Shown here in pieces: positions 1 to 33,500 of a stretch of DNA of 37,928 nt. Below the pieces are notes generated by a model. It saw only the letters and a list, made by a program, of their open reading frames with translations, did not search any database and was not told where the DNA came from. Position 1 is the first letter of the stretch, and every line of letters begins with the position of its first letter. Made by a program: the position numbers and the translations under genes. Source of the stretch: a virus (Duplodnaviria > Heunggongvirae > Uroviricota > Caudoviricetes); the IMG/VR virus record IMGVR_UViG_2703718774_000026; one strand, 5' to 3'.

Positions 1-1002
1 TTACCCTCTATTGTCAAAAGGGTTCAATTCAACAGCAGCCTCTAAATGACCTGGAGCAAAATGCGCATAACGCATAGTCATTTTTATATCGCTATGCCCC
101 AGTATTTTTTGCAACACAAGAATATTTCCGCCCCGCATCATAAAATGACTGGCAAACGTGTGACGTAGCACATGAGTTAATTGCCCATCAGGAAGCTCGA
201 TCTTCGCTCTCTTAATTGCAGCGTCAAAAGCCTCATAACATGGTGAAAATAGCGCTCCTCGTTTTTGAGGAAGCATAGCCTGCAATTGAGGTGAAATCGG
301 TACAGTGCGGTTCTTCTTTCCTTTAGTTTTAACAAATGTGATTCGACCGGGCAGTACTTGAGATTGCTTTAATCCTTCAGCTTCACTCCACCGAGCACCA
401 GTCGCAAGCCCAATACGGACAACAACCCCCAAATCTTTATTCCGTGACTCATCACACGCAATCAGAAGGCGTTCAATCTCATCTACATACAGAAACGCCA
501 GTTCCTTTTCTTCCTCACGAAACTTGCGAATACCAGTCAGGGGGTTTTCACCAGACCACTCCCCAAGGCGCTTCAGTTCGGCAAAAACAGCATGTAGATA
601 TGACTGCTCGCGATTAACGGTTGCTTCACTAAGTTTTTTCTTCCCCTTGGGATTCCATTCTCCTGATAGCCTTCTTTCCCGATAAGTAGCAAACATATTT
701 TTGTCAAACTGAGAAGCAAATGGATCCCCCAGCCTGGAACAAATCGCCTCAAGTTTGACTTTGCGCTCTGCACCAGAGGACAAGGTTTTACCGTACATCT
801 CAAACCAACGAGCAATCAACTCAGAAAGACGAGGACCAGAACCATCTTGAAACTCGTCTCCAACTCTACTATTCATTAAACGGCGCTCATAAGAGAGCGC
901 CTCACTTTTTGTCGCAAACTGTTTACGAATGCGTTTTCCCGATGCCCCGTAGGGATAACATTCGCAAAGCCATTTACCTGATGGAATCTTACGAACCGAC
1001 AT
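1..1002 (-). CDS. int: Phage integrase, tyrosine recombinase (P2 Int-like), 333 aa
   Basis: Full ORF with stop at nt 1-3. C-terminal catalytic region HTFASHFMMRGGNILVLQKILGHSDIKMTMRYAHF fits the tyrosine recombinase R..H..R..Y signature. Lies downstream of the repressor, as in P2. Confidence 0.9.
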   Translation of the reverse strand: MSVRKIPSGKWLCECYPYGASGKRIRKQFATKSEALSYERRLMNSRVGDEFQDGSGPRLSELIARWFEMYGKTLSSGAERKVKLEAICSRLGDPFASQFDKNMFATYRERRLSGEWNPKGKKKLSEATVNREQSYLHAVFAELKRLGEWSGENPLTGIRKFREEEKELAFLYVDEIERLLIACDESRNKDLGVVVRIGLATGARWSEAEGLKQSQVLPGRITFVKTKGKKNRTVPISPQLQAMLPQKRGALFSPCYEAFDAAIKRAKIELPDGQLTHVLRHTFASHFMMRGGNILVLQKILGHSDIKMTMRYAHFAPGHLEAAVELNPFDNRG

Positions 1003-1007
1003 TTTAG

Positions 1008-1355
1008 TTACTTATCACATAAATCAAATGCAGCCTTAGTGACATCCCCCAGACTCTTTTTTAACCCTGGGGCGGCATCATTATCTAGCCAAAATGGATT
1101 ATTGTTATCTAACGGTAACGCACCAAATGTTTTACCTTTTATTCGAGCTAAACCTGTAAGCGCATATAACTTATTATCGTCAAAATTCATCACATAAGGA
1201 TTACCATCAAGACACTGTAATTGAACCTCATCAGTATTAAATGGCCATACCCCATTGAAACTCTCACGTTCAATAGTTTTAAAAGGCATTGCGACGGCGG
1301 AAAAAGAAAACATAGATAAAAAAGTAACTAATAGTTGAACCTTTTTTACTTTCAT
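1008..1355 (-). CDS. Small secreted protein, 115 aa, co-oriented with repressor and int
   Basis: N-terminal signal-peptide-like segment MKVKKVQLLVTFLSMFSFSAVA; two Cys (mature region and near C-terminus); AT-rich codon usage unlike the phage backbone. No family assigned with confidence. Confidence 0.6.
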   Translation of the reverse strand: MKVKKVQLLVTFLSMFSFSAVAMPFKTIERESFNGVWPFNTDEVQLQCLDGNPYVMNFDDNKLYALTGLARIKGKTFGALPLDNNNPFWLDNDAAPGLKKSLGDVTKAAFDLCDK

Positions 1356-1384
1356 ATCATTACCTCAATTTAGCTCAAGTAAGA

Positions 1385-2035
1385 TTACAAATTAAAAAAC
1401 ACCCTAGAAATGGCACCGCCTACCAAAACCCCTACGCAGATAAAGAATATTATTTCTTTTGGATAAAGTCGGATTAATTCTGAAGCACGAAGTCGAACTT
1501 CTGGTAAGGCCGAACTCTCTGTGTGACTTGATGCCGATTGTTGCTCTAACCACGACAATGCAGACTGTAACTGAGAACGAGTAAGATCGTTTAAACGTCC
1601 TGTACCGAAATTGATATGGCAATACCGCAGAAGTTTTTGTCGAAGTCCACAGTCTTCACTGTTACGTAGTAATAAACTTACAAGAGTCTTACAGGCATCA
1701 TGATCTTTACATCGCTCAAGCATTGCATGCAGAAAACTCTCCGCTGTTTTATATTGATTTACTGTCATATCATCAATACCAGCTACACCAATCTCCGCAT
1801 GTACTTTTTGCCAAATAATAAACGCTTCAGTATTGCTAGCTTCTGCAATAGCAGCAACCAAGCTATTTAGCTCCTTACGCTGAGCCTTAAGCAAAGGGCG
1901 ATCGTCATCATCATTATTCGAAGGGATTGCGATATTGACGGTATGAGAACCATCATATCGCTCTATCTGAATATTCTTTTCGTGAAAATCACGCCCAGCA
2001 ACGCGATTGTTTGAACCGTTTGAGTTGACGGCCAT
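1385..2035 (-). CDS. Hypothetical protein, 216 aa, with C-terminal transmembrane anchor
   Basis: C-terminal hydrophobic stretch IIFFICVGVLVGGAISRVFF; N-terminus carries NNRVAGRDF, which echoes the repressor C-terminus NNRIAGRDY; RBS GGAGG upstream; AT-rich. Confidence 0.6.
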   Translation of the reverse strand: MAVNSNGSNNRVAGRDFHEKNIQIERYDGSHTVNIAIPSNNDDDDRPLLKAQRKELNSLVAAIAEASNTEAFIIWQKVHAEIGVAGIDDMTVNQYKTAESFLHAMLERCKDHDACKTLVSLLLRNSEDCGLRQKLLRYCHINFGTGRLNDLTRSQLQSALSWLEQQSASSHTESSALPEVRLRASELIRLYPKEIIFFICVGVLVGGAISRVFFNL

Positions 2036-2050
2036 GTCACCTCCCTACTA

Positions 2051-2455
2051 TCACCTACCCTTAGTTTCGTTATAGTCACGACCAGCGATACGGTTATTAC
2101 CACCAGAAATATTTAACTCACGTCCTGATGGCTGAGTTTCCTTTTCACTGATCGCACCTTTTAAAGCCCCGATCACCGCGTTTTTCACATCTAACGAAGC
2201 TGCTCGAAAGCGAGTAATCAACTCCTGCTCATCATCGTTATAAGTTTCAGGTGAGTGAATTCCCAACACAACATACTGAACATCAAGGCCAAAACGAGAC
2301 AGCGCTGCCAAATACGCAGCATCAGGAAAGCTATCTCCTTTCTCATATCTAAGCTGAGTTAGCTTTTTGACTCCACCAATGTCGCTCATGGCAACTTGAC
2401 TAAGTCCCAATCTTTCCCTTTCCTCACGCAACCGCTGACCAATATCATTTTTCAT
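2051..2455 (-). CDS. XRE-family HTH repressor (P2 C / 186 CI position), 134 aa
   Basis: N-terminal HTH QRLREERERLGLSQVAMSDIGGVKKLTQLRYEKG typical of XRE/Cro-CI regulators; divergent from the early operon; first gene of an operon ending in int. Confidence 0.8.
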   Translation of the reverse strand: MKNDIGQRLREERERLGLSQVAMSDIGGVKKLTQLRYEKGDSFPDAAYLAALSRFGLDVQYVVLGIHSPETYNDDEQELITRFRAASLDVKNAVIGALKGAISEKETQPSGRELNISGGNNRIAGRDYNETKGR

Positions 2456-2464
2456 ACAAAAACC

Positions 2465-2493
2465 TTGACAGGTATCTTTTTTGATACCAAAAT
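2465..2493 (+). promoter_or_regulatory. Candidate early promoter with overlapping operator palindrome
   Basis: TTGACA at 2465-2470, 17-bp spacer, CAAAAT at 2488-2493; perfect inverted repeat GGTATC-N6-GATACC at 2471-2488 inside the spacer, between the divergent repressor and early genes. Confidence 0.35.
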
Positions 2494-2530
2494 GATTTCA
2501 CGAGCTATTAGATGATCACAATATACCACT

Positions 2531-2737
2531 ATGAAACAAGTTCTTCACGATACCAGATCACGCATTCCGCGTAACACCGCCACAGGTCCAAGACTGGCAC
2601 TTCGGCTGTCCCTCGAGGAGCGAGCCGTCATTGATGAAATGGCAGCTAAAGAACAACGCTCATCCTCTAACATGGCGCGCATGATCTTCCTTCGCGGCCT
2701 AGAGCTAACCCAGAAAGAACAAAACAAATCTTCCTGA
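2531..2737 (+). CDS. Putative ribbon-helix-helix regulator, 68 aa, first early gene
   Basis: Pattern PRLALRLSLEERAVIDEMAAKEQ...NMARMIFLRGLEL fits a beta-strand plus two helices (CopG/Arc-like RHH); assigned by position and pattern only. Confidence 0.5.
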   Translation: MKQVLHDTRSRIPRNTATGPRLALRLSLEERAVIDEMAAKEQRSSSNMARMIFLRGLELTQKEQNKSS

Positions 2738-2753
2738 TCAGGAGGCTAGTGGG

Positions 2754-2957
2754 ATGTCAGGTATAACCATCAATATCAATGTGAATGCCCCCTATGTATC
2801 CCTGCAGAAATATGCAGAGATAACAGGTATCCCTCTTAATACATGCAAAAAGATGTTGGCTGACGGTCGAATTATTATCCGCCCCAAACGCGCCAAAATG
2901 GAAAAGCCTGAAGTAAACCTTGTGGCGATGTTAAAAGACGCTTTGGCTAACAGCTAA
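2754..2957 (+). CDS. Cox/Apl-like small DNA-binding protein, 67 aa
   Basis: APYVSLQKYAEITGIPLNTCKKMLADGRIIIRP resembles the P2 Cox helix region (IPYQEFAKLIGKSTGAVRRMIDKGKLPVI, recalled from memory); RBS GGAGG precedes the ATG. Confidence 0.5.
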   Translation: MSGITININVNAPYVSLQKYAEITGIPLNTCKKMLADGRIIIRPKRAKMEKPEVNLVAMLKDALANS

Positions 2958-2978
2958 AACAATGAACAGAGCATCATC

Positions 2979-3329
2979 ATGAAAAAAAACACTAATAATC
3001 CATACTCCAAATTTCGTAATGGCGTAGAACGCCATGTACACCACGTCGCTACCAGTGCATCACGTAGTAACAGCCGCTATAACCTGAACGAGACGCACGC
3101 AACACCAGATGGGCACGCTGTAAAACAAATCGGCGAACACACCTGGCTGATTGAGAAAGCTGGAATCGTGGTTCACAGATGCCCACACAATCCGTTTACC
3201 GGAAACCGCATTTTTGCATTAAGCAGCGGCGATAATCAGTTCGGGCAGGATTTCACATTGTACGAAGCACTACGCACAGTCGATCGTCTGCTTCGCGGGC
3301 AAAGTTTTATTAAACAGGCTGCTTTATAA
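2979..3329 (+). CDS. Hypothetical early protein, 116 aa
   Basis: Intact ORF in the tightly packed early operon; no recognisable motif. Confidence 0.5.
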   Translation: MKKNTNNPYSKFRNGVERHVHHVATSASRSNSRYNLNETHATPDGHAVKQIGEHTWLIEKAGIVVHRCPHNPFTGNRIFALSSGDNQFGQDFTLYEALRTVDRLLRGQSFIKQAAL

Positions 3330-3339
3330 CAGGTGCTTT

Positions 3340-3618
3340 ATGACTAAAGACCATGCACAAGGTGTATTTATCCGCTTTATTGATTTTCGCGGTGAACTGT
3401 TATTACGCGCATCAGCTATTGACGGAGTAGTTCCATCTGAAAAAAACGCAGCTACCTACGTTTATCTGAACGGTACACGCCTGACTGTAGAGCTTCCGTA
3501 CCAGATCATTCGCGAAATAATTAGCGAAGCCGAAAAATCTCGTCAGGTTAATGGCGATGAACCCTATATCGAGATTATCTGCATGGATTCAGAAGCTGAA
3601 ATTCAGAAAGCAGATTAA
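3340..3618 (+). CDS. Hypothetical early protein, 92 aa
   Basis: Intact ORF, same strand and packing as neighbours. Confidence 0.5.
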   Translation: MTKDHAQGVFIRFIDFRGELLLRASAIDGVVPSEKNAATYVYLNGTRLTVELPYQIIREIISEAEKSRQVNGDEPYIEIICMDSEAEIQKAD

Positions 3619-3629
3619 AGGGTGTTGCG

Positions 3630-3872
3630 ATGGATAAAGAATATAAAACTCTCATCAACAAAGCACTTGAGCGTTTTTATTTTCGTTTAAGCGCATCCGG
3701 CGCTCATTCAGAACGTGCAGCCCGTGACTCATTGACCAGGGCTATCCGGAGTCTGTATGACGTAGCTTTTTACGCTGACGATCTGGATGCACTTAATGAA
3801 CTTTCTGAGCTTATCTGCGCCGCAGAATGCGGGGAGCATATTGAGCCGTACAAACTGGGAAATATCGCATGA
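3630..3872 (+). CDS. Hypothetical early protein, 80 aa
   Basis: Intact ORF; stop overlaps the next start (ATGA at 3869-3872). Confidence 0.5.
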   Translation: MDKEYKTLINKALERFYFRLSASGAHSERAARDSLTRAIRSLYDVAFYADDLDALNELSELICAAECGEHIEPYKLGNIA

Positions 3873-3982
3873 GTATATTTATATCCTGGATTGTTCTTAT
3901 TATTTCGGTGGTTTGTGCAATTGGTATTATGCGAATTATTAATTCAGTAAAAAAGATTGAACGCTTTTTCACTGGCGAATAA
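3869..3982 (+). CDS. Small hydrophobic peptide, 37 aa (MSIFISWIVLIISVVCAIGIMRIINSVKKIERFFTGE)
   Basis: Translated by hand; absent from the ORF track because it is under 60 aa; start overlaps the upstream stop; single predicted transmembrane helix. Confidence 0.35.
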   Translation: MSIFISWIVLIISVVCAIGIMRIINSVKKIERFFTGE

Positions 3983-4068
3983 CCGCATAAATAAAACCCC
4001 AGCTTAAATAAAAAAATGTGAACACAATCTGCATTCGCAGAGGTATTCACACACACCAAGGAGGCGTA

Positions 4069-4272
4069 ATGGCAATTAAGCATTTTCCTGTCGTTCGTTT
4101 CACCTCCAGAGGACGTGAATACGAAGTCGACGAACGTCTGATTACCACAATCGACAAACACCGCTCAGAAAAGGATGCACACCACATCTATCTCACTGAC
4201 GGCACTTACTTTTGCGCCACTAATGTGGCGCGGGTGAATCTTATCCGACAGGTACAGGATCCACGCAAATGA
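4069..4272 (+). CDS. Hypothetical early protein, 67 aa
   Basis: ATG at 4069 preceded by AGGAGG, so the internal Met of ORF 4018..4272 is the likely start; stop overlaps the next start. Confidence 0.45.
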   Translation: MAIKHFPVVRFTSRGREYEVDERLITTIDKHRSEKDAHHIYLTDGTYFCATNVARVNLIRQVQDPRK

Positions 4273-4487
4273 GTAGGAGAAGAATCACTCGCAGACATCA
4301 CCGAACACACCTGAGTTCCTCAGCAACGCTAAAGGCACTTATTCAAAGCGAGATCGGTGATTTCTTCGCGGGAGTTGGCTCACCAGGCGAACCAGAAACA
4401 CCAGAAGCGATGCAGCGTGAGCTCATGATACGCATAGATAACACTTTTGATTTCTTCTACAGCATGCACGGAATTAAACAGAAATGA
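4269..4487 (+). CDS. Hypothetical early protein, 72 aa, basic N-terminus
   Basis: Intact ORF; N-terminus RRRITRRHHR is strongly basic. Confidence 0.45.
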   Translation: MSRRRITRRHHRTHLSSSATLKALIQSEIGDFFAGVGSPGEPETPEAMQRELMIRIDNTFDFFYSMHGIKQK

Positions 4488-4595
4488 ACCTCAAGCCAGC
4501 AATAACTACTCGTAGAACGTCAATTCCTGTAACCGACCGCTTCTGAGTTTTTTGGCAGGAAGCCTTCGCACATCTGTAGTAAAGAGAATTGCAGC

Positions 4596-4985
4596 ATGAT
4601 TGACGCTCATGACTTCACAAGATGGGTGCGCACACAGGACACCCGTCTGGCTCCCGTTCTTCAGGGATTATTTGATCTCTACATCCGTGGTCGTGACAAC
4701 AGAGCACGCACCACAAAACCGGAGAATGCAGACACCCTTTATTTCACAGTAGACGACTGCTACCGCGTGGACTTCACACCACACGGGCTGGCGTTGCACT
4801 GCCTGACACCACACGGCGAATCACTGCTGGCGTATTACGACTCCCCGGCCTCCATATTTGCGGCAATGCTGGCGCATCGCACTGCTGGCGGGTGTGCCTC
4901 GCTGAGTGAATACTCCGCTGAATTTAACCGCCTTTCCGCCCTCTTCTCACAGGAGTGGCAGCGCGTGACGGGATACCAGCCATGA
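4596..4985 (+). CDS. Hypothetical early protein, 129 aa, immediately upstream of A
   Basis: Stop overlaps the A start (ATGA at 4982-4985). Confidence 0.5.
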   Translation: MIDAHDFTRWVRTQDTRLAPVLQGLFDLYIRGRDNRARTTKPENADTLYFTVDDCYRVDFTPHGLALHCLTPHGESLLAYYDSPASIFAAMLAHRTAGGCASLSEYSAEFNRLSALFSQEWQRVTGYQP

Positions 4986-7822
4986 GTGCGTTTGCATGGA
5001 GCTGGAATGAACCACGGCCAGCCATTGATCCGGCCAGATTTACGGAGCGCAGGCAGGAAACTGAAACCGACCTGCAACGCGCCATCCGTTACTACCTTGA
5101 GGCAAACAAAAGGGCACAGGAAGAACAGGAAGCGAAGGAAGAAGCCTTTTTCGCACAATCCACCGTGGGTAAAAAACTCATGGCATCCCTTGAGGAAGCC
5201 GGACAGCGTGAAAAGCTGGCACAAAGCATCATCAGCAAGCGTCAGGCAACAGAACAAGACCCGGTGGCCCGTGCTTTTGCCACACTGAAGGTGCTTCCCG
5301 TTTATCTGCGTGAACCTCTGAGCCGCCACCTCTCTTTTCTGCGCAAGAAGCAGGAAGCCGATCGTCAGAAAGGCAAAAAGAGCTGGCAGGCTGAACGCTA
5401 CGCGCGCGGAACCCTGCGCAAAATATTCGAACGTCTGGACCGCACCGACAGCCGCTGGCTGACACCGGGCTATCGCTCCCTTGCCGGACGCGAACGCCTG
5501 GACGATTTGCTTTACCTGCCGCAGCTCAACAAACACCAGATACAGACGCTGGCCACCATGACGGCGGCGATGTTCAGTGGCACTTTTGAAAAACTCTGCG
5601 ATGGCTTTGGCGCGACCGATGGCGAGCTGACCATGGATGTAACGCTGAAGGCGTATCAGATGCTGGCCCGCATGGCGTTACACCTGCACGCTATGCCTCC
5701 ACATTATGACGCTCTGACAACAGACAAAGACCGGAGGAATGAACCGGACACGGAGCTGCTGCCGGGCGCAATCCTTCGCCTGACCTGTGCGGAATGGTGG
5801 AAACGCAAACTGTGGCTGTTACGTTGCGAGTGGAGAGAAGAACAACTCCGCGCCGCCTGTCTGGTTTCCAGAAAAACATCACCCTATCTGAGCCAGGACG
5901 CGTTAAGCGAGTTTCGCGCACAGCGCGAGAAAACACGCGATTTCCTGAAAAGTTTCATGCTGGAAAACGAAGACGGGTTCACGATTGATCTCGAGACAGT
6001 GTATTACGCGGGAGTAAGTAACCCGATTCACCGTAAGGCAGAAATGATGGCCACCATGAAGGGGCTGGAACTTCTGGCCGAAGCCCGTGGCGACAGAGCG
6101 GTGTTTCTGACTGTCACCTGCCCGTCAAAATACCACGCCACAACAGAGAACGGTCATCCGAATCCCAAATGGAACGGGGCCACCATGCGCGACTCCAGCG
6201 ATTACCTGGTTAACACGTTTTTTGCGGCGGTCCGCAAGAAACTGAACCGCGACGGCCTGCGCTGGTATGGCATCCGCACGGTGGAGCCTCACCATGACGG
6301 CACCGTGCACTGGCATATGATGGTCTTTGCTCATCCGGAAGAAATCGACACCATTGTGTCCCACACCCGCGATATTGCCATTCAGGAAGACCGCCACGAG
6401 CTGGGCAATGATATTACTCCGCGCTTTAAGGTGGAGTATGTCGACGGCTCAAAAGGCACGCCAACCAGCTACATCGCCACCTACATCGGAAAGAACCTGG
6501 ACAGCCGCGCCGTGGATGGCATCGACCCGAAAACGGGCAAGCCACGCGTTGACCACGAAACCGGAAAATCAATGGCCGAGAGCGTGGAACGCGCCATCGG
6601 CTGGGCACGCCTTCACCGGGTCCGCCAGTTCCAGTTCTTTGGCATCCCCTCCCGTCAGGTATGGCGTGAACTCCGCCGCCTTGCCAGCCAGATGGCACGC
6701 AACCCGGAAGGCCCACAACGGCTGAAGGATGATGCAATGGATGCGGTACTCGCTGCCGCTGATGCCGGGTGTTTTGCCACCTACATTGAGAAACAGGGCG
6801 GCGTACTTGTTCCACGCAAAGACTACCTGATTCGCACCGCCTACGACCTCGCAGATGAGCTGAACGATTACGGCGAACAGAGCGTACAGATTTACGGGAT
6901 CTGGTCACCACTCATCGGGGAATCCTCCCGTGTGTGCACGCACCCGGATAACTGGAAGCTGGTAAGACGTAAACCGGAAGCGGAAGACAGCACCCGCGAA
7001 AATGGTTTTGACCTTCAGGGCGGCCCTGCCGCCCCTTGGACTCGTGGCAATAACTGTCCCCGTGTACAGGAAACGGACAACAACGGGACAGAACAGCCGG
7101 AAGAAAGGCCAGCACCGTGGCCGCAGCTTCCTGACGGCGTTGACGTGAATGAATGGATGCGCTCACTGAAACGGCACGAACGCCGGGCGCTGATGCGTTC
7201 GCTGCGTGACAAACAGGCAAAAAACAGCAGTGATGAAATGCAGAACTGGACACAGAGCCGCAAACAGCCACGGCCTTTGCCTGATAATCACGAGTTACTC
7301 GCTAAAGAATGGCGGGAGTCTGCTGAATCTCTCGGCCTGCATATCGGTGAACAGCAGATGCAGCACCTGTTACGGGGCGGCAGTCTGTACGTTGACGGCA
7401 GCATCATTGCACCGCAGGGATTTGAAATTGTACGCAAACCAGATACCCGCCCGGACAGCCGAATCACGCAACTCTGGCAGCGCCTGAGCCGTAATCACGG
7501 CGTAAGCAGCACGGAGATCCGCCATAACCCGGTCGCCAGCTATCTGGAACAGCTGGGGGCATCAGACCCCGAAGCCGCCGCACACCTGGCATCCACACTT
7601 CAGCAGGACCAGAACACCATGAAAACCCCCGTTACCGTGCTTTCTGACATGCTGCGCGCCATCCGTGACGCAGTGCACGCACAGAGAATCAGTGAAACCA
7701 CTGAACGCGCCCACCGCAAAGCAGACCTGCTGCGGGGTAGCCTGACCAGTGGAAACAAAAAACAGACAGAAACGGGACTCACAAATCCCGTAAATGAGCA
7801 AAAAACGTGCCGCGATATATGA
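4982..7822 (+). CDS. A: Rolling-circle replication initiator, P2 gpA family, about 946 aa
   Basis: HUH-type motif TVHWHMMVF and paired tyrosines in TSYIATYIGKN; position after the early genes as in P2. An alternative in-frame start lies at 4955. The C-terminal third is Q/R/E-rich low complexity. Confidence 0.9.
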   Translation: MSAFAWSWNEPRPAIDPARFTERRQETETDLQRAIRYYLEANKRAQEEQEAKEEAFFAQSTVGKKLMASLEEAGQREKLAQSIISKRQATEQDPVARAFATLKVLPVYLREPLSRHLSFLRKKQEADRQKGKKSWQAERYARGTLRKIFERLDRTDSRWLTPGYRSLAGRERLDDLLYLPQLNKHQIQTLATMTAAMFSGTFEKLCDGFGATDGELTMDVTLKAYQMLARMALHLHAMPPHYDALTTDKDRRNEPDTELLPGAILRLTCAEWWKRKLWLLRCEWREEQLRAACLVSRKTSPYLSQDALSEFRAQREKTRDFLKSFMLENEDGFTIDLETVYYAGVSNPIHRKAEMMATMKGLELLAEARGDRAVFLTVTCPSKYHATTENGHPNPKWNGATMRDSSDYLVNTFFAAVRKKLNRDGLRWYGIRTVEPHHDGTVHWHMMVFAHPEEIDTIVSHTRDIAIQEDRHELGNDITPRFKVEYVDGSKGTPTSYIATYIGKNLDSRAVDGIDPKTGKPRVDHETGKSMAESVERAIGWARLHRVRQFQFFGIPSRQVWRELRRLASQMARNPEGPQRLKDDAMDAVLAAADAGCFATYIEKQGGVLVPRKDYLIRTAYDLADELNDYGEQSVQIYGIWSPLIGESSRVCTHPDNWKLVRRKPEAEDSTRENGFDLQGGPAAPWTRGNNCPRVQETDNNGTEQPEERPAPWPQLPDGVDVNEWMRSLKRHERRALMRSLRDKQAKNSSDEMQNWTQSRKQPRPLPDNHELLAKEWRESAESLGLHIGEQQMQHLLRGGSLYVDGSIIAPQGFEIVRKPDTRPDSRITQLWQRLSRNHGVSSTEIRHNPVASYLEQLGASDPEAAAHLASTLQQDQNTMKTPVTVLSDMLRAIRDAVHAQRISETTERAHRKADLLRGSLTSGNKKQTETGLTNPVNEQKTCRDI

Positions 7823-7898
7823 AGCGCGCACAAAACAGGCAAAAGCGGGATTTAAAAATCCTGTAACCGATTAATTAATCAACACAAGGAAAAGCGAC

Positions 7899-8858
7899 AT
7901 GAAAATTTGTATCGACGACGGCTCCACCAACATCAAGCTGGCATGGACTGAGAACGGCGAACGCCGCAACGCCATCAGCCCGAACAGCTTCAAGTCGGAA
8001 TGGTCTGCGCCGTTCGGTGGCACGCAGCCCGCGAACTACATGCTTGATGGCGTGCGCTATGGTTTTGATCCGGTCAGCGATCGCTTTGTCCAGACGACCG
8101 ACACGCAATACCAGTACAGCGATGTGAATATAATTGCCATTCATCACGCGCTGGTCAAATCAGGCATCACACCACAGGAAGTGGATGTGGTTGTCACCCT
8201 GCCACTGAGCGAGTATTTCGATACAAACGCACAGCCGGACATGGCCAACATCAACCGCAAAAAAGCGAACGTCATGCGCCCGGTGGAGTACCAGAACGGC
8301 GAAGCATTCACTATCCGTAACGTACGGGTTATGCCTGAATCCATTCCGGCTGGCTTTAAGGCACTGGCTGACATGAGTCCGTTTGAATCCCTGCTGATTG
8401 TGGATTTGGGCGGAACCACTCTGGATGTGGCAAAGGTTCAGGGGCAACTGGCAGGTATCAGCCAGGTGTTTTGCGATCCACACGTGGGCGTTTCTCTGAT
8501 GGCCGATGCCGTACTGTCGGTGATGGCCACTAACGGTATGCGCACCAGTCACCACATCGCCAATACCATTATCGAACATCGCCATGATGAAGCCTGGCTG
8601 CGCCAGCACATCCACAATGACGCGCATTACGCCAGCCTGATGGCGGTTATTCGTGAAAAGGAAGAAACACTGAAACAACGCGTGATCCGCGCGCTGGCGG
8701 GTTTTTCGGGTTACGGGCGGGTGATGGTTGTCGGTGGAGGGGCGGAGATTGTGGCACCCGCTATCCGCGAAGCCTGCGGAGTTAATGCGACTTTCATCGC
8801 GGACGGGGTGCCACAGTTTGCTCTGGTTAATGGGCTGTACGCAATGGACAAGGAGTAA
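7899..8858 (+). CDS. parM: ParM/StbA-family actin-like ATPase, 319 aa
   Basis: N-terminus MKICIDDGSTNIKLAW..ISPNSFK.EW and blocks YSDVNI.A.HHAL, VMPESIPAG, DLGGTT.D, GVSL, VGGGAE align with plasmid R1 ParM as recalled from memory. Confidence 0.85.
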   Translation: MKICIDDGSTNIKLAWTENGERRNAISPNSFKSEWSAPFGGTQPANYMLDGVRYGFDPVSDRFVQTTDTQYQYSDVNIIAIHHALVKSGITPQEVDVVVTLPLSEYFDTNAQPDMANINRKKANVMRPVEYQNGEAFTIRNVRVMPESIPAGFKALADMSPFESLLIVDLGGTTLDVAKVQGQLAGISQVFCDPHVGVSLMADAVLSVMATNGMRTSHHIANTIIEHRHDEAWLRQHIHNDAHYASLMAVIREKEETLKQRVIRALAGFSGYGRVMVVGGGAEIVAPAIREACGVNATFIADGVPQFALVNGLYAMDKE

Positions 8859-8862
8859 ACCA

Positions 8863-9174
8863 ATGACGACTCCAACCAGACGGATAAGTTTCTATCTGAA
8901 GCCCACCGCCGTCAAGAACGAAGGAGAAGCATGCGCCTGGCTGGACAGCCTTACACCAGAAGCCCGCAAAAGCGGCCAACGCGTGGCTTTTCTGGCCGGG
9001 CTGGCACTTCTGAAAATGAATCCGGCAGAGGCTTATCGACTGGCTGCATGGGCTGGTGATGAAGCGTTATCAGTGACACAAACCAGGACAGAACGCCCCG
9101 CATCACAGCCAGTATCAACCGCACAGATAACCAGTCAGATGGCCGGAAATATCCGGGCGTTATTTCCTGAATAA
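8863..9174 (+). CDS. ParR/StbB-like small adaptor protein, 103 aa
   Basis: Starts 5 nt after the parM stop; N-terminus TRRISFYLKP...LDSLTPEARKSGQRVAFLAGLAL resembles the R1 ParR RHH region as recalled from memory. Confidence 0.6.
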   Translation: MTTPTRRISFYLKPTAVKNEGEACAWLDSLTPEARKSGQRVAFLAGLALLKMNPAEAYRLAAWAGDEALSVTQTRTERPASQPVSTAQITSQMAGNIRALFPE

Positions 9175-9182
9175 CAAAACAT

Positions 9183-9200
9183 CAGGGCGAGTTCGCCCTG
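9183..9200 (+). terminator. Stem-loop CAGGGCGAGTTCGCCCTG between the ParR-like gene and the next gene
   Basis: Inverted repeat seen directly; no U-tract, so terminator function is uncertain. The same stem recurs at 9841-9866. Confidence 0.35.
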
Positions 9201-9237
9201 CTCTCCACCTCAGAACATAAACAAGGAGAACGACTTA

Positions 9238-9828
9238 ATGAGCGAAATCAACTATCAGGCATTACGTGAACGTTATTCACCTGTGCCAGTACCGAAATGC
9301 CCTATTTGCGGCGAGGAAATGTCAATTCAGCGAATATCTGGAGCACAGGTTGTTTATGCCTGCTCCGGTTATGGTGATGATGGAGATTTCAAAATTGGCC
9401 GAACTCTTGCCGACGAACATTATGAAAAATCACGCGTAACAGTGTTGGATGTCGGGGATCCTGAAGTATTGGCGCTACTTGATTGGCTGGAAACCAAAGA
9501 CAACCGAATCGCTGAACTGGAAAAAATCGCCACTGACTATGCACTTAAATTCCAGAAAGCACAGGACGCATTAAAGTATGCCGCTTTGCTGCATAGCAGG
9601 ACGGCGCAACAAACAAATAATTTTGCAGTATCGCTTCCGGACATAAGCGAATATTTCATTAATGACGTATTTCAGCCCTTGCGATACGAGCGGGATGTTG
9701 AAAGAGCCATCATAAAGGCTGGCGGAAAAGCATTGTGGCAGGAGAAACACGAGGACAGAACGCATCAGTCCTGCGATGTAAATCGTGGATGGTTTAGCCC
9801 ACTGACGACAGATAAAAATAACACCTGA
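9238..9828 (+). CDS. Hypothetical protein with N-terminal zinc-ribbon-like motif, 196 aa
   Basis: CPICGEE...N19...YACSGYG near the N-terminus; central region ETKDNRIAELEKIATDYALKFQKAQDALKYAALL looks coiled-coil-like; flanked by two similar hairpins. Confidence 0.55.
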   Translation: MSEINYQALRERYSPVPVPKCPICGEEMSIQRISGAQVVYACSGYGDDGDFKIGRTLADEHYEKSRVTVLDVGDPEVLALLDWLETKDNRIAELEKIATDYALKFQKAQDALKYAALLHSRTAQQTNNFAVSLPDISEYFINDVFQPLRYERDVERAIIKAGGKALWQEKHEDRTHQSCDVNRGWFSPLTTDKNNT

Positions 9829-9867
9829 TCCCCCTCAAACCAGGGCGATAATCGCGCATCGCCCTGC

Positions 9868-9966
9868 TGCACAATAGTGCACAAGTTTGCACAATTTTTT
9901 TGAACGACTTTTTACCCTTCCGGCCCGCATGGCGGCTGGATCCGTCAAGGATCCGTGCGTGCACAA
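9868..9966 (+). repeat. Phased TGCACAA repeats in the non-coding stretch between cargo and Q (candidate cos-region elements)
   Basis: TGCACAA at 9868, 9878 and 9888 (exact 10-bp spacing) and again at 9960; GGATCCGT occurs twice at 9939-9958. Confidence 0.45.
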
Positions 9967-10267
9967 AAAAACGCGCTTTTTCTGCGCGCAGGTGACGGGG
10001 GAACAGCCCGCGTTTCAGGGGGTAAATAGCATCCCCTGAACGATGTCGCAGCGACACAACAGAATGGCTGTATTTCTCACGCTGAGCGTGAAAAAGACGT
10101 GAGGGCTTTTGATTTGATGGGTGGCAGATAAGGCCGTCAAAATCGCACTGAGGCGGCGAGAACATGCAGTCAACGCGGTGGGATTGCGTAAGAGTCTGAC
10201 CGCCGATGATGACAATAAGCAGAAAAGCGTCGTGAAATTATCTGATTGATACAGGAGCTGGAGAGTC

Positions 10268-10290
10268 GGGGCATAAATTTTTTATGCCCC
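10268..10290 (-). terminator. Palindromic hairpin GGGGCATAAA-TTT-TTTATGCCCC just 3' of the portal gene
   Basis: Perfect 10-bp stems, A/T loop, 28 bp downstream of the Q stop on the minus strand; could act in either direction. Confidence 0.4.
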
Positions 10291-10317
10291 GGCGAAGCAG
10301 CAGACAAGCGAAGCGCG

Positions 10318-11364
10318 TCAGGATGTGGGCTGGGTATCTAGCAGTGCGTAAGGGTTAAAGCGGATCACCTCTTCGCCAAGCCAGTCATTGATGTGCTTCA
10401 TGGCCTCCATAACGGGCATCAGCTCGTTAATTGCGTAAACCCGCGCGGCCTTCTCCACATCACCAAACGCACTTTTTTCGCCCGGCATCGCCCCCATCAG
10501 TTGCGGCGGAACGCGGTGCGCAGCCAGCACATCATCACGGGATGCCGCCTTAACATTCATGAACTCATCCTTTGCAGTGATCTGCTGGAACGGCAAAATT
10601 TGCACACCTTCTTTGCCCCCGTTGGGCGCATGGATGAGTACGTTTTTAAACGCACCACCACCACGCGCGCCCTGTAACGTTTCTTTCAGGGAGTCCATGC
10701 TTTCGCGGTTTACCTGCGCTGCACCGATGTAGATGATGCACCCGGCGTGGGATCCGTTGTCGTAGTACAGTTTTCTGAACATGTCCGCCGAATGAGAAAG
10801 GCTGGCCGAGAGTAATGCGCCAAGATATTCCGGCATGCCGTAGATTTCCTGGTTAATATCCGGATTCATCAGGTGGCACACTTTGCCAGGGCGAAACTGG
10901 AACGCGTCCTTGCCATCCTGCACATACCACCATGATTCAAGATCGCTTCCGCGTCGCATGTATTTCGCCAGGGCGTGCCGTAATTTAAGCGGTTCGCCGA
11001 GCATATTGCTTCTAAGCTCAAGGAATGCGTTACCGAACACAAACCAGTCCAGCGCCAGCGCCGAGAAATCCTGCCGGGAAAGCAGCGGGTGCGGGATGTA
11101 GCAACCGAGTAATACATTGCGCTTAAAGTAAAGCGCAGACTGATGCCAGGACGTTTGCCGGGCTGCTCTTGCCAGACCGTACCAGTCCACCGGGGTTTCA
11201 TACCACCGTCCGTTATCAGCACAGTACATATTGTCCAGCAGGTCATGCCCGGTCAGGCGATAAGGACCATCAAATGTGAATGCACTGAGCGATGATTCTT
11301 TCCTGAGCGCATCAGCGAGATCAATGCGTGAACTCATGCGCACTTTTTTATTTTTTCTGCTCAT
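10318..11364 (-). CDS. Q: Portal protein (P2 gpQ-like), 348 aa
   Basis: Size and position match P2 Q next to the cos region; start overlaps the P stop; transcribed opposite to O-N-M-L as in P2. Confidence 0.9.
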   Translation of the reverse strand: MSRKNKKVRMSSRIDLADALRKESSLSAFTFDGPYRLTGHDLLDNMYCADNGRWYETPVDWYGLARAARQTSWHQSALYFKRNVLLGCYIPHPLLSRQDFSALALDWFVFGNAFLELRSNMLGEPLKLRHALAKYMRRGSDLESWWYVQDGKDAFQFRPGKVCHLMNPDINQEIYGMPEYLGALLSASLSHSADMFRKLYYDNGSHAGCIIYIGAAQVNRESMDSLKETLQGARGGGAFKNVLIHAPNGGKEGVQILPFQQITAKDEFMNVKAASRDDVLAAHRVPPQLMGAMPGEKSAFGDVEKAARVYAINELMPVMEAMKHINDWLGEEVIRFNPYALLDTQPTS

Positions 11365-13115
11365 CAGAACTCCATAACCGTGAAACGCTCGTTTTCTCCT
11401 TCGCCGCCAATCGGTTCGTTAATGACAGCAAGCATGGTTGCCCACGCAAGGTCGCCGTGGCTGATCCCCCTCGCGCGGTCCGTTTCGTAAGTGATAAAGC
11501 CGCCCGGTGTTTTCACCTTACGCACGGCGTTAAAGGCCGCGACCAGCTCGCGTTCGGCGCGATCGTATTCCCACCGCCCGGCACGCATTATTTGCAGCAT
11601 TTTCAGTACCAGCGACCGTTTTGATGACAGCGTGAAGGTGTACGGAATAGCAGCAGGGAAAAACCGTTTCACTATCTGATAAACAGCCTCCCCGTTCCCG
11701 CCCGTCACATCAATGCCGATGTGTTCCACGTTGTAGCGATACGTGAACTCTTCAATGACTCTGGCCTGTTCTTCAAACTCCAGCCCCTGAACGCGTCGCG
11801 TCTCCACCGTTCGAAAACGGCCACCAGGAACAGCCGGAGGAACCACCACGGACACAGCGCCGCTGTCGCCGTTGCCACTACTGCCGTTTGCGTCATACCC
11901 AATCCATACCGGACGATTCCCCATCGGGCGGGGAGCAAAAGGTTTCCAGTCTTTCCAGTCGTCGTATCCGTCAACACCGCAGCCAATCAGGATATTCAGG
12001 TTAAATGCCGATTCCCCTTCGCGGACAAACTCACACATATAGAGATTGAGGAACTCGTCTTCGGTGTTTTCATCACGAATTTCGTCGATATCGGTGTGTT
12101 TCCAGCCGTGATTGACCACATCTTCCAGCGTGACAATTTGCCGCCACGTCCGGTCAGGGCAGATAAGCCCGTTATGCAGCGTTTTCCAGTCCACAGAAAA
12201 ACGCTGGCGTTTATGCGTGGCCTTTTTCTCGTTCCAGCGGTCGCCGTTCCAGTAGGCGTATGCCTCGTGCGTTTCGGTGGATGGCGTGGAGAAGTAGGTG
12301 CGCCGCAGTCCGCTGAGGGTTGCCATAGCGCCAGCCACCTTGCGCAGTTCAGCAAAGCGACTGACCCAGAAAAATTCATCAAAATAAAAATTGCCCGTAT
12401 AGGACTGTGCCGACGCAGCAGAAGTGCCGAGAAAATGCAGCTCTGCGCCGTTGGAGAGGATGATTTTATCGCCCCCTTTCAGCTCCACATCAACTTCAGC
12501 CGCGGCCTTCTGAATAATGCTTTTAAACTGGAACGCCTGACGACGCGACGCAGACAAAAAAATCTGGTTACGCTGGTAAGGTTGCGCCACATCGTCACGC
12601 AGCGCCATCAGCAGAGCTTCCTGTGCAAAATACCAGGTCGCCCCAATCTGTCGGGATTTCAGGATCATCCTGTTACGTATCCCGGCTTCCCTGCAAAGGG
12701 TCAGGGAGTCAAACCAGCCCCGCTGATGCCACTCCAGCCTGCTGATGATTTTTTCCCGCAGTGCGGCAATCTGTTCCGGCGTGAAATGATTTTTGAGTTT
12801 TTTCGCCCGGCCTTTCTTTCCTGTGACCGTCGCATCCGGCTGGCCATCATGCAGTTTTTTAAGCTGCCGGGTCAGCAGGTCTATTTCCTTAAAGTCACCG
12901 CCTGTTTTATTCTGTTTTTCAGTAAGCTGGATGAGGCGCGCATCGATGGACTGCGTGACACGCTGCACGGGTGGCGTTTCATCCCACTGGTCGCGTTTTT
13001 TCCACGCATAAATCGTGTTCGGGTTTATTCCCATCAGACGTGATATTTCTGCGGGCGGATAACCCTGCCAGTAAAGTTGCCGCGCACGCTGGCGCACAAA
13101 AGCGTCCTGAATCAT
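11364..13115 (-). CDS. P: Terminase large (ATPase) subunit (P2 gpP-like), 583 aa
   Basis: Size and order match P2 P; divergent from O across a 120-bp promoter region. Confidence 0.9.
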   Translation of the reverse strand: MIQDAFVRQRARQLYWQGYPPAEISRLMGINPNTIYAWKKRDQWDETPPVQRVTQSIDARLIQLTEKQNKTGGDFKEIDLLTRQLKKLHDGQPDATVTGKKGRAKKLKNHFTPEQIAALREKIISRLEWHQRGWFDSLTLCREAGIRNRMILKSRQIGATWYFAQEALLMALRDDVAQPYQRNQIFLSASRRQAFQFKSIIQKAAAEVDVELKGGDKIILSNGAELHFLGTSAASAQSYTGNFYFDEFFWVSRFAELRKVAGAMATLSGLRRTYFSTPSTETHEAYAYWNGDRWNEKKATHKRQRFSVDWKTLHNGLICPDRTWRQIVTLEDVVNHGWKHTDIDEIRDENTEDEFLNLYMCEFVREGESAFNLNILIGCGVDGYDDWKDWKPFAPRPMGNRPVWIGYDANGSSGNGDSGAVSVVVPPAVPGGRFRTVETRRVQGLEFEEQARVIEEFTYRYNVEHIGIDVTGGNGEAVYQIVKRFFPAAIPYTFTLSSKRSLVLKMLQIMRAGRWEYDRAERELVAAFNAVRKVKTPGGFITYETDRARGISHGDLAWATMLAVINEPIGGEGENERFTVMEF

Positions 13116-13269
13116 TGCTCCCCCTGAGTAATTACAGGAAGATTACCCGCGCGCGAAACTGTTCTCCTTAACCCCCTGTTCTGGCCGTTTTCTTACAACA
13201 AAATCCCTTTGTATCAGCCTGTTACGCTTTGCCATCATGACTGAAGAACCAGTCAGAGGGGCAAAAACT
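13116..13269. promoter_or_regulatory. Divergent late promoter region between P and O
   Basis: Non-coding gap between divergent late operons, the position of P2 Ogr-dependent promoters; no clean TGT-N12-ACA box found by eye. Confidence 0.35.
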
Positions 13270-26510: not shown

Positions 26511-26666
26511 GATAATCTCCTTAATTATTATTTCAGACCACACATATTATAAGGTTAAGAGATTATAAAATCCTGTTGTTTGTTATTCAAAAACAATTTT
26601 CTGAGAAGGACATACAACAGCAAGTCGCCAGTCACCTTCATCAGGAAATTGGCGACATACGTTAAA

Positions 26667-32242: not shown

Positions 32243-32399
32243 AGCTTCAGCCCCTTGTATCCGTTAAATGATTCGGCAACAATCATCACCCACCACGCGC
32301 GTAATCTCACCCCTGCGCCGTTCTCCCGCCACGGCGACAACAAAAAGCAGTAACCCCCTATGCACGCACATGCGACCATGCCGCACAGGGAGGGAACAG

Positions 32400-33500
32400 A
32401 TGACCGATACCACCATGCAATTGCTCAGTCAGAGCACAGACCCCGTGAAAATGCCGGATTTTGATATTCTCGCGGAGGGGGAAACACTGTCCGGCGTGGC
32501 AGAGCGCCTGATGAGCCTGTCACTGACCGACAACCGGGGATTTGAAGCGGACCTGCTCACCATCACGCTGGATGATGCGGATGGTCAGTTGCAGCTACCG
32601 CCACGGGGCGCGCGCCTGACGGTTCTCATTGGCTGGAAAGGAGAACCGCTGACAGAAAAAGGCACTTACATTGTTGATGAAATCGCTCACGAAGGACCGC
32701 CGGACAGGCTGACTGTTTCAGCCAGAAGCGCAGATTTTCGGGATGAATTTAACGTTAAACGTGAGGTGTCCTGGCATGATGTGACCGTTGAGCGCGTGGT
32801 ATCCGCCATCGCTCATCGGTACGGTCTGAAACCACAAATCAGCGAAATGCTGATGGATATTGAAATCGACCACGCCGACCAGACCGAAGAAAGCGACATG
32901 TCCTTCCTTACGCGCATGGCGGAAATGCTGGGCGCAATCACTACGGTAAAAAGCAGTAATCTGTTATTCATCATGCCAGGCGGTGGCGTGAACGCACAGG
33001 GCCAGCCGTTGCCATCGTTCGCCATCACGCGCAGCAGTGGCGATCGCCATCAGTTCCGCATTGCTGACCGCGAAGCGTATACGGGGGTACGTGCTTACTG
33101 GCTTGATCTTAATTACGGGAAAAAGAAAAAAGTCAGCGTGAAACGCCGCAAACCGAAAAAGGAGAAAAGCAGCAGCCGTGAAGGTGACTATATGGAAGGT
33201 GCGGAAGGCAACGTGTTTGTGTTACGCAAGACTTATCAGAACGAGCAGGCAGCAAGACGTGCAGCGGCGGCAAAGTGGCAGCAGCTACAACGCGGAGCCG
33301 CATCATTCTCCATCACGCTGGCGCGTGGACGCGCAGAACTCTATCCCGAAATGCATGGCACGGTGACAGGCTTCAAAAGTGACATCGATAATCAGGACTG
33401 GATTATTGCAAAAGCCGAGCACACCATTGATAACAGCGGCTTTACCACACAGCTTGAGCTTGAAGCAAAAATCCCGGAATGGATAGCAGAAACAGAATGA
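32400..33500 (+). CDS. D: Tail protein D (P2 gpD-like), 366 aa
   Basis: LTDNRGFEAD, ARSADFR, KREVSWHD, DQTEESDMSFLTRMAE, ITRSSGDRHQFRIADREAYTGV, FSITLARGRAELY, GFKSDIDNQDWIIAKAEHTIDNSGFTTQLELE match P2 D as recalled from memory; ATG at 32400 after GGGAGGG. Confidence 0.9.
   Translation: MTDTTMQLLSQSTDPVKMPDFDILAEGETLSGVAERLMSLSLTDNRGFEADLLTITLDDADGQLQLPPRGARLTVLIGWKGEPLTEKGTYIVDEIAHEGPPDRLTVSARSADFRDEFNVKREVSWHDVTVERVVSAIAHRYGLKPQISEMLMDIEIDHADQTEESDMSFLTRMAEMLGAITTVKSSNLLFIMPGGGVNAQGQPLPSFAITRSSGDRHQFRIADREAYTGVRAYWLDLNYGKKKKVSVKRRKPKKEKSSSREGDYMEGAEGNVFVLRKTYQNEQAARRAAAAKWQQLQRGAASFSITLARGRAELYPEMHGTVTGFKSDIDNQDWIIAKAEHTIDNSGFTTQLELEAKIPEWIAETE

Follow-up and report, generated by a model that had tools for sequence, protein, structure and literature searches.

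What does a plasmid-type DNA partition module do in a phage that integrates into the chromosome of its host? This question is raised by the IMG/VR virus record IMGVR_UViG_2703718774_000026, whose whole stretch of 37,928 nucleotides is referred to here as the window, and in which the genes of an actin-like ATPase (parM) and of its adaptor (parR) are found between the replication gene A and the portal gene Q of a P2-like prophage. As judged from the sequence comparisons described below, the two genes (parMR) and a candidate centromere (parC) in front of them form a complete, functional-looking type II (ParMRC, R1/StbAB-type) DNA partition cassette. The module is fixed in a very common phage lineage, where it has already been annotated and has been mentioned in the literature. 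The explanation favoured here, to which a probability of about one half is given, is that parMR extends the replication module as a fixed part of these phages, and that it segregates the replicating extrachromosomal phage circle and limits its loss at division. The coordinates of the features are collected in Table 1.

The ParM protein matches its Pfam domains from end to end, with E-values of 3.7e-82 for StbA_N and 1.3e-68 for the ParM C-terminal domain, and a phmmer comparison with the R1 ParM structures (1mwk and others) covers residues 2-316 with an E-value of 1.2e-92. The sequence identity with R100 ParM is 46% when compared over the full length. The phosphate-1 motif (DDGST, being D6-D7-G8-S9-T10), the phosphate-2 motif (DxGGTTLD, being D169-x-G171-G172-T173-T174-L175-D176), the adenosine motif (GGGA, being G279-G280-G281-A282) and the catalytic glutamate (E147) are all invariant in an alignment of 18 sequences reaching 49% identity. 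The first-pass annotation of this DNA had called the gene a ParM/StbA-family ATPase, naming a lack of actin-fold ATPase motifs on profile comparison as a reason to abandon the call; the comparison finds all of these motifs present, and with the nucleotide-binding motifs intact this objection fails.

The naming of the next gene as ParR-like is also borne out, by the matches to Pfam family PF10784 (Plasmid_stab_B, StbB/ParR family; 3.1e-23) and to the PHROG family phrog_2515, 'partition protein' (1.7e-57), and its product is 32% identical to R100 StbB/ParR over the N-terminal 62 residues. A phmmer search with ParR of the sequences of the Protein Data Bank gives no chain at E-values up to 1. For the module in general, a scan of NCBIfam gives sub-threshold matches only. 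The layout of the protein comprises an N-terminal strand region (RRISFYLKP), helices, a variable linker (approximately residues 64-93) and a C-terminal tail (NIRALFPE). The AlphaFold model of the monomer, calculated with an alignment of 24 sequences, has a predicted local distance difference test score (pLDDT) of 55.8, as expected for an obligate dimer, which is too low for a fold search; the N-terminal ribbon-helix-helix DNA-binding domain of this type of adaptor is therefore putative here. Clearly, when these sequence matches are taken together, the family assignment of the pair as ParM/ParR is secure. The Shine-Dalgarno sequence of parM is AAGGA at 7886-7890, whereas the ribosome-binding site of parR (AAGGAG) sits within the 3' end of parM, and the two genes appear to be translationally coupled. 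The gap between them, initially given as 5 nt, is 4 nt (8859-8862).

The prophage is readily placed. The queried region is 99.5% identical to Xuanwuvirus P884B11 and 96.7% identical to phage P88, which assigns the window prophage to the P88-like genus (Xuanwuvirus, Peduoviridae), and the gene order int-C-cox...A-parM-parR-cargo-Q-P is the same in the window prophage and in P88. The interval between A and Q is the slot that holds tin and old in P2, and it is a known defence hotspot (PMC9122126). The module lies in this interval and an integrase gene is present, in agreement with the initial description of a module in the tin/old (A-to-cos) slot of an integrative prophage.

In the phage collection, parMR is present in all 14 records with a P88-type (Xuanwuvirus) gene A and in exactly the same 14 records; among the other cultured phages no ParM homologue is found, save in phage D6 (47.5%) and in a distant match from Acinetobacter. 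The module is also present in 1307 of 5426 complete Escherichia coli genomes (24%), at 1455 places, of which 1453 are chromosomal and two are on plasmids, and single genomes hold up to three copies. According to Rousset et al. 2022, who also voiced the idea of plasmid maintenance, 'around a fourth of P2-like phages' carry the module (PMC9122126). The proteins are annotated in RefSeq by the Prokaryotic Genome Annotation Pipeline (PGAP) as 'plasmid segregation protein ParM' and 'plasmid partitioning/stability family protein', in PHROGs as phrog_691 and phrog_2515, and in P88 as gp17-gp18. With respect to this catalogued module (RefSeq, PHROGs, P88, Rousset et al. 2022), the module of the window is the same one, and the downstream cargo alone differs among relatives. 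The module is therefore not unexpected in a P2-like phage, as had been supposed. The first-pass annotation had also held that its proposal would be undermined if the module were conserved core content of this lineage with no stabilisation or defence phenotype; the conservation named in this statement is what the survey finds. No paper testing the role of the module was found in the literature. The literature on prophage CP-933T, which is not established as being of this prophage type, and the ST95 paper hold nothing on its expression or function.

The similarity among relatives stops at the end of parR, at approximately 9170-9200, where a G+C-rich hairpin is located. The stretch from parR to Q carries 29 unrelated cargo types in 53 loci, with lengths of 950-3050 bp; the Ead/Ea22-like cargo of the window is found in 11 of these loci, and 28 other types occupy the slot elsewhere. 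Since the turnover of cargo is seen only past parR, the start of the defence-type hotspot is placed after this gene, and parMR is counted with the conserved backbone. A PADLOC scan (E up to 0.1) of ParM, ParR, the Ead-like protein and the gene A protein gives no matches. The use of the actin-like module for defence, which had been suggested at first, has no support, as the module has no PADLOC match and is invariant while the cargo 3' of parR varies.

The DNA in front of parM has the features of a candidate parC. Two units of 38 nt, one within the last codons of gene A and one in the A-parM intergenic region, are imperfect direct repeats, being 79% identical and 73 nt apart, and each includes a 20-bp candidate ParR-binding dyad. 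The last codons of gene A thus encode site 1. The lineage consensus of the dyad is ACGGGATT-N4-AATCCCGT, and in 67 unique related prophage sequences the majority forms are perfect palindromes, ACGGGATT-CACA-AATCCCGT for site 1 and ACGGGATT-TCAG-AATCCCGT for site 2. The perfect 8-bp-arm consensus of site 1 is present in 36 of the 67, the variation is mainly in the 4-nt spacer and in the outermost positions of the arms, and the dyads of the window itself have one and two arm mismatches. When searched with up to three mismatches, the palindrome pattern occurs three times in the window, as compared with 0.05 expected occurrences, and none of 100 shuffled sequences reaches three. The third match (AAGAGATTATAAAATCCTGT, 26557-26576, three mismatches) is intergenic, between an acetyltransferase-like gene and a tail gene, and is treated as chance. 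Two 11-mers, AAATCCCGTAA at 7783-7793 and AAATCCTGTAA at 7856-7866, had been proposed earlier as parC-like candidates; their positions are correct and they belong to a plausible parC-like site, but they are not whole sites, each being the right arm of a dyad.

The two-site layout is also preserved in a Plesiomonas phage whose ParM is 62% identical: the sites are approximately 71 bp apart, the first is within the end of gene A, their sequences are GCGGGACAAC-N-AACCC(G/A), and a ATTAATCAA box precedes the start codon. In R100, direct AAAACCCA-type iterons are arrayed around a TTGACA box to form parC. Similar to these iterons are the half-sites of the phages, which read AATCCCG, or AACCCG and AACCCA in the case of Plesiomonas, and from this sequence resemblance the two dyads, having four half-sites, can be viewed as a plausible reduced or minimal parC.

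When the cassette is compared with the R1 parMRC system (the parA locus) and with stbAB of NR1/R100, the order of cis site, parM and parR is the same, the ParM proteins have 319 and 320 residues, and the cis sites of R100 and of the phage are both A-rich with CCC-core repeats. The differences concern the plasmid cis site, in which two clusters of direct 11-bp iterons flank a clear promoter, whereas the phage candidate consists of two 20-bp palindromes that are partly coding; ParR, which has 116 residues in R100 and 103 in the phage; and the setting, the phage module being located in an integrating P2-like phage.

Both genes are under purifying selection. For parM, the pooled ratio of nonsynonymous to synonymous polymorphism (pN/pS) is 0.05 in 66 unique sequences, 141 of the 190 polymorphic columns are at third codon positions, and a premature stop is found in none of 81 loci. 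A search of viral contigs gave only relatives of 99-100% identity, which are usable for population statistics and not for footprinting. The ParR alleles of P88-like prophages of E. coli are more diverse, with identities of 52-97%, than the adjacent ParM proteins, which are at least 91% identical. The pN/pS of ParR is 0.17 in the N-terminal strand region, 0.23 in the helices, 0.60 in the linker and 0.11 in the C-terminal tail. The tail motif N-[AI]-x-x-L-F-P is present in all phage-context ParRs, from six genera, and the linker preceding it is unalignable. In divergent alleles the N-terminus, which is predicted to contact the DNA, and the palindromes are unchanged. A DNA-binding adaptor whose linker is flexible and whose tail binds ParM would be expected to show such a sequence pattern, and R1 ParR is presumably built in this way too. 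The helical domain of ParR is of two main types, with P0147 and P0148 being apparent chimeras.

Outside the closest group, the place of the module is kept. In the protein database, below 91% identity, the next relatives of ParM are at 62-54%, and those inspected (from Hafnia, Plesiomonas, Serratia and Enterobacter) are all encoded between gpA and the portal gene of P2-like prophages; the slot is retained across six genera and down to 54% identity of ParM. The ParM loci at 52% identity or below are without P2 genes and are found on plasmids, in integrative conjugative elements (ICEs) or in other surroundings that are not phage. In a neighbour-joining tree the phage-context ParMs form one clade with moderate bootstrap support (137/200), the phage set including a truncated Hafnia contig (L086). 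In Escherichia albertii NBRC 107761 (5366-13128), the A protein and ParM are 96% and 99% identical to those of the window, Q and P are 30% and 35% identical, and ParR is a 53% allele. This mosaic suggests that A and parMR are exchanged together, as one block, between phages with different head modules. In the Hafnia and Enterobacter prophages, additional open reading frames (ORFs) separate A from parM and the types of A are not the same, which indicates that the cassette, when viewed over long distances, behaves as a module in the gene pool of the P2-like phages. To what had been catalogued, the present analysis adds the linkage to A, the phage-specific ParM clade across the Enterobacterales, the candidate-parC dyads and their conservation in Plesiomonas, the boundary of the hotspot, and the selection pattern of ParR.

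Of the loci with lower identity, the gene context was inspected for two chromosomal ParM/ParR pairs at 49-50%. One, in Dickeya (CM001975.1), is in an ICE (TraG, TraU, integrase), and the other, in Mangrovibacter (CP134782.1), is beside Rep3/ParAB genes of an integrated plasmid, so that ParMR in integrated elements is not confined to phages. Four enterobacterial-type ParM loci (L093, L120, L121 and L135) are in assemblies labelled Vagococcus, Streptomyces morookaense, Clostridiales and Lachnospiraceae; one of them is 98% identical with full P88-like context, and contamination of the assemblies or faulty binning is the most likely explanation for the four.

How such a cassette could serve an integrating phage is suggested by its place in the genome. 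Gene A closes the plus-strand early block, and parMR follows directly downstream in the same orientation, after a gap of 76 nt. Between A and parM, a consensus scan finds neither a plus-strand terminator nor a sigma-70 promoter, and the simplest reading is therefore a joint expression of parMR and the early replication operon. If so, the proteins are present when the genome is a free circle replicated by A. In the mechanism proposed here, ParR dimers would bind the two palindromes, whose four half-sites are iteron-like, and the small partition complex that results would probably autoregulate the operon too. ParMR would be transcribed with gene A, or directly after it, from the early operon, and both proteins would be made while the genome is replicating as a circle, which is after infection and before integration, or after excision. 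Filaments of ParM capped by ParR-parC would then drive sister circles to opposite cell halves, as in R1, and both daughters would retain a phage copy while the cell still divides. The outcome would be less abortive lysogeny and less prophage loss following non-lethal excision.

The best functional analogy is srpMRC of the SXT/R391 ICEs; this locus stabilises the excised, replicating ICE R391 and has a centromere of four 13-bp repeats (PMC4489591). As described by Carraro et al. 2015 (PMC4489591), it is also a ParM-type locus of a normally integrated element, acting on a transient, excised circle with rolling-circle replication, and srpC with its four repeats is comparable in size to the candidate parC with its four half-sites. 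The two systems differ in that SrpM and SrpR are distant from R1 ParM and ParR, with SrpR having no homology to ParR, whereas the phage proteins are close relatives of those of R1; in that R391 is an ICE and not a phage; and in that experimental support exists for srpMRC only.

Several points weigh against the segregation of the replicating circle by parMR. A repressed, non-replicating circle gains nothing from partition, and the benefit hinges on a putative interval of replication without lysis. The R1 parC has ten iterons. With two dyads and four half-sites visible as compared with these ten, the phage sites may be an operator only. In the Serratia and Enterobacter relatives the (C/T)GGGAAC core is kept, and it is arranged as longer inverted repeats. 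A circular record of a P88-like phage (NZ_CP148288.1, described below) documents an extrachromosomal form, which speaks for the proposal if the circle is an episomal prophage; it may also stem from induction and have been picked up during assembly, and this option counts against the proposal. Finally, three quarters of the P2-like phages of E. coli are without the module (PMC9122126).

The main rival model concerns lytic growth. It is possible, although rather unlikely, that ParR tethers the replicating circles to ParM filaments, by which they are spread or positioned in the cell, and that this aids replication and packaging, not inheritance. P2-type phages package monomeric circles. A precedent is the prophage CGP3 of Corynebacterium glutamicum, where the adaptor AlpA of the actin-like protein AlpC binds its own promoter region (Donovan et al. 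2015, PMC4446434) and where AlpAC is induced early and is required for efficient replication of the phage DNA (PMC4446434). The position of parMR after gene A, in the orientation of the early genes, with no terminator detected in between, and its co-inheritance with A would fit such a role. The AlpAC/alpS system is also similar in that an actin-like ATPase and a DNA-binding adaptor of an integrated prophage act on circular phage DNA, the site of the adaptor being upstream in its own operon. It differs in the actin-like family, the gene order and the host phylum, and its role is efficient replication and transport, not demonstrated segregation. ParM of the window is near the plasmid-segregating ParMs, as seen from its identity with R100 ParM, and not near AlpC, and most P2-like phages replicate well without the module.

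It is less probable that P88-like phages have an alternative to integration in which the prophage is kept over many generations as a circular plasmid of low copy number, with A replicating it and ParMRC partitioning it. The ParM of phage D6 (91 kb record), annotated as 'StbA type plasmid stability protein', is the closest phage ParM from outside the P2-like group, D6 being a P1-like phage-plasmid. In addition, the circular 'plasmid' NZ_CP148288.1 (34,461 bp), from an E. coli isolate of a cat, represents the complete genome of a P88-like phage, in which the integrase gene, A, parM, parR and the structural genes are present, and the Plesiomonas relative is on a contig of 32,167 bp, which is about phage size, the examined part of which ends beside an integrase gene. 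The other 'plasmid' matches with at least 90% identity are rejected as episomes: CP061244.1 is 1.4 Mb, NZ_CP049283.1 is a linear fragment of 26.7 kb, and the remaining ones are replicons of 228-542 kb with an integrated prophage. Against this plasmid lifestyle, the immunity repressor of P2-type phages shuts off the operon containing A. A repressed plasmid would therefore be without its replication initiator, and, as seen from the ORF list and the profile matches, the sole replication gene of the prophage is the P2-type A, with no plasmid-type replicon in the window. Moreover, an integrase is encoded by the window prophage, by P88 and by the circular record, and all but two of the E. coli occurrences are chromosomal, so that stable episomal maintenance, which had been envisaged as one option, is not supported as the normal state and may be an occasional one. 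A third lifestyle of the P88-like phages, and of the wider ParMR-bearing P2-like clade, in which a low-copy episomal carrier state lasts many generations before integration or lysis and in which the diversity of ParR would spare co-resident relatives a partition incompatibility, is accordingly doubtful; if it were true, about a quarter of the P2-like prophages of E. coli would be facultative phage-plasmids. The plasmid-maintenance idea itself was proposed by Rousset et al. 2022 (PMC9122126).

It is very unlikely that the module acts in exclusion or incompatibility, with prophage ParR or ParM disturbing how incoming plasmids or related phages are partitioned, or in anti-phage defence. The location in a known defence hotspot, the multiple copies in single E. 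coli genomes and the unusual diversity of the ParR alleles, as compared with ParM, would fit with this. The absence of a PADLOC match and the invariance of the module, as compared with the 29 cargo types after parR, do not fit, and the diversity is concentrated in the linker, the N-terminus of ParR and the palindromes being shared by divergent alleles. In addition, the low identity with R100 ParR, together with the lack of a ACGGGATT-type dyad in the R100 parC, makes cross-binding unlikely. The notion of a decaying or selfish hitch-hiker from a plasmid, having no role for the phage, would agree with its absence from most P2-like phages and with the frameshifted copy of phage 503458 (a tblastn match in four pieces), and it has hardly any chance of being correct in view of the low pN/pS of parM, the frame that is intact at 81/81 loci, and the slot kept in six genera.

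As a component of approximately a quarter of the P2-like prophages of E. coli and of 24% of its complete genomes, the module is among the commonest actin-like partition systems of this species. If parMR stabilises the replicating circle, the principle of srpMRC, by which an integrating element needs a plasmid-like means of inheritance while excised, would apply to tailed phages as it does to ICEs, and the success of the lineage would be partly explained. Pipelines that call plasmids and phage-plasmids from ParM/ParR matches will mislabel these chromosomal prophages, and in studies of the P2 defence hotspot the left boundary should be set after parR in this lineage. The biological role is a question of moderate interest and is easily testable.

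Table 1. Features of the prophage around the parMR module (positions in the window)
Feature	Position	Strand	Remarks
Tyrosine integrase	1-1002	minus	
Helix-turn-helix repressor-like gene	2051-2455	minus	
Gene A, rolling-circle replication initiator (Phage_GPA)	4955-7822	plus	Pfam PF05840, 8.9e-130
Candidate parC, 38-nt repeat unit 1	7756-7793	plus	within last codons of gene A
Candidate ParR-binding dyad, palindrome site 1	7772-7791		ACGGGACTCACAAATCCCGT; 20 bp; inside gene A end
Candidate parC, 38-nt repeat unit 2	7829-7866	plus	A-parM intergenic region
Candidate ParR-binding dyad, palindrome site 2	7845-7864		GCGGGATTTAAAAATCCTGT; 20 bp; parM leader
parM, actin-fold ATPase of type II partition system	7899-8858	plus	319 aa; ATG 7899, TAA 8856-8858
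parR, centromere-binding adaptor (by family)	8863-9174	plus	103 aa; ATG 8863, TAA 9172-9174
G+C-rich hairpin	9183-9200		CAGGGCGAGTTCGCCCTG; just 3' of parR; right-hand boundary of conserved module
Ead/Ea22-like protein	9238-9828	plus	196 aa; Pfam PF13935, 1.1e-31; variable cargo, outside partition module
Portal gene Q	10318-11364	minus	
Q (portal) and P (terminase) together	10318-13115	minus	
Head, lysis and tail genes up to gene D	gene D: 32268-33500		followed by host tRNAs leuZ-cysT-glyW and pgsA

The window comprises the P2-like prophage and a host flank, the insertion being between yecA and leuZ-cysT-glyW-pgsA. In E. coli E2865, where the queried module is 100% identical, the prophage is also located between yecA and the same tRNA cluster. 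The gene A product has 955 residues when read from the first GTG and 946 in the PGAP annotation, with the Phage_GPA domain covering residues 194-518 only. The C-terminal third of the protein is variable, with indels among close relatives, and the alignment expanded from 1360 to 1417 columns. A P2 ori nick sequence has no match in the window when as many as three mismatches are allowed. The protein encoded at 9238-9828 has two N-terminal CxxC pairs and weak zinc-ribbon matches, together with its lack of a PADLOC match.

Between the integrase gene and the repressor-like gene, the minus strand of the window has two genes (1008-2035), one for a DUF2511 protein (1008-1355) and one for a protein of 216 residues (1385-2035) that is a membrane protein according to PGAP; in contrast, P88 has nothing between int and C. 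This region resembles a second accessory slot, possibly for lysogenic conversion. A defective P88-like prophage of E. coli O157:H7 F8492 (721-5933) has intact A, parM and parR, with an IS3-family insertion element directly after parR, and its portal, terminase and head genes are missing. In the cos-proximal region of the window, just 3' of the end of Q, a perfect hairpin with 11-bp arms (CGGGGCATAAA-N3-TTTATGCCCCG, 10267-10291) is probably the terminator of the Q-P operon.

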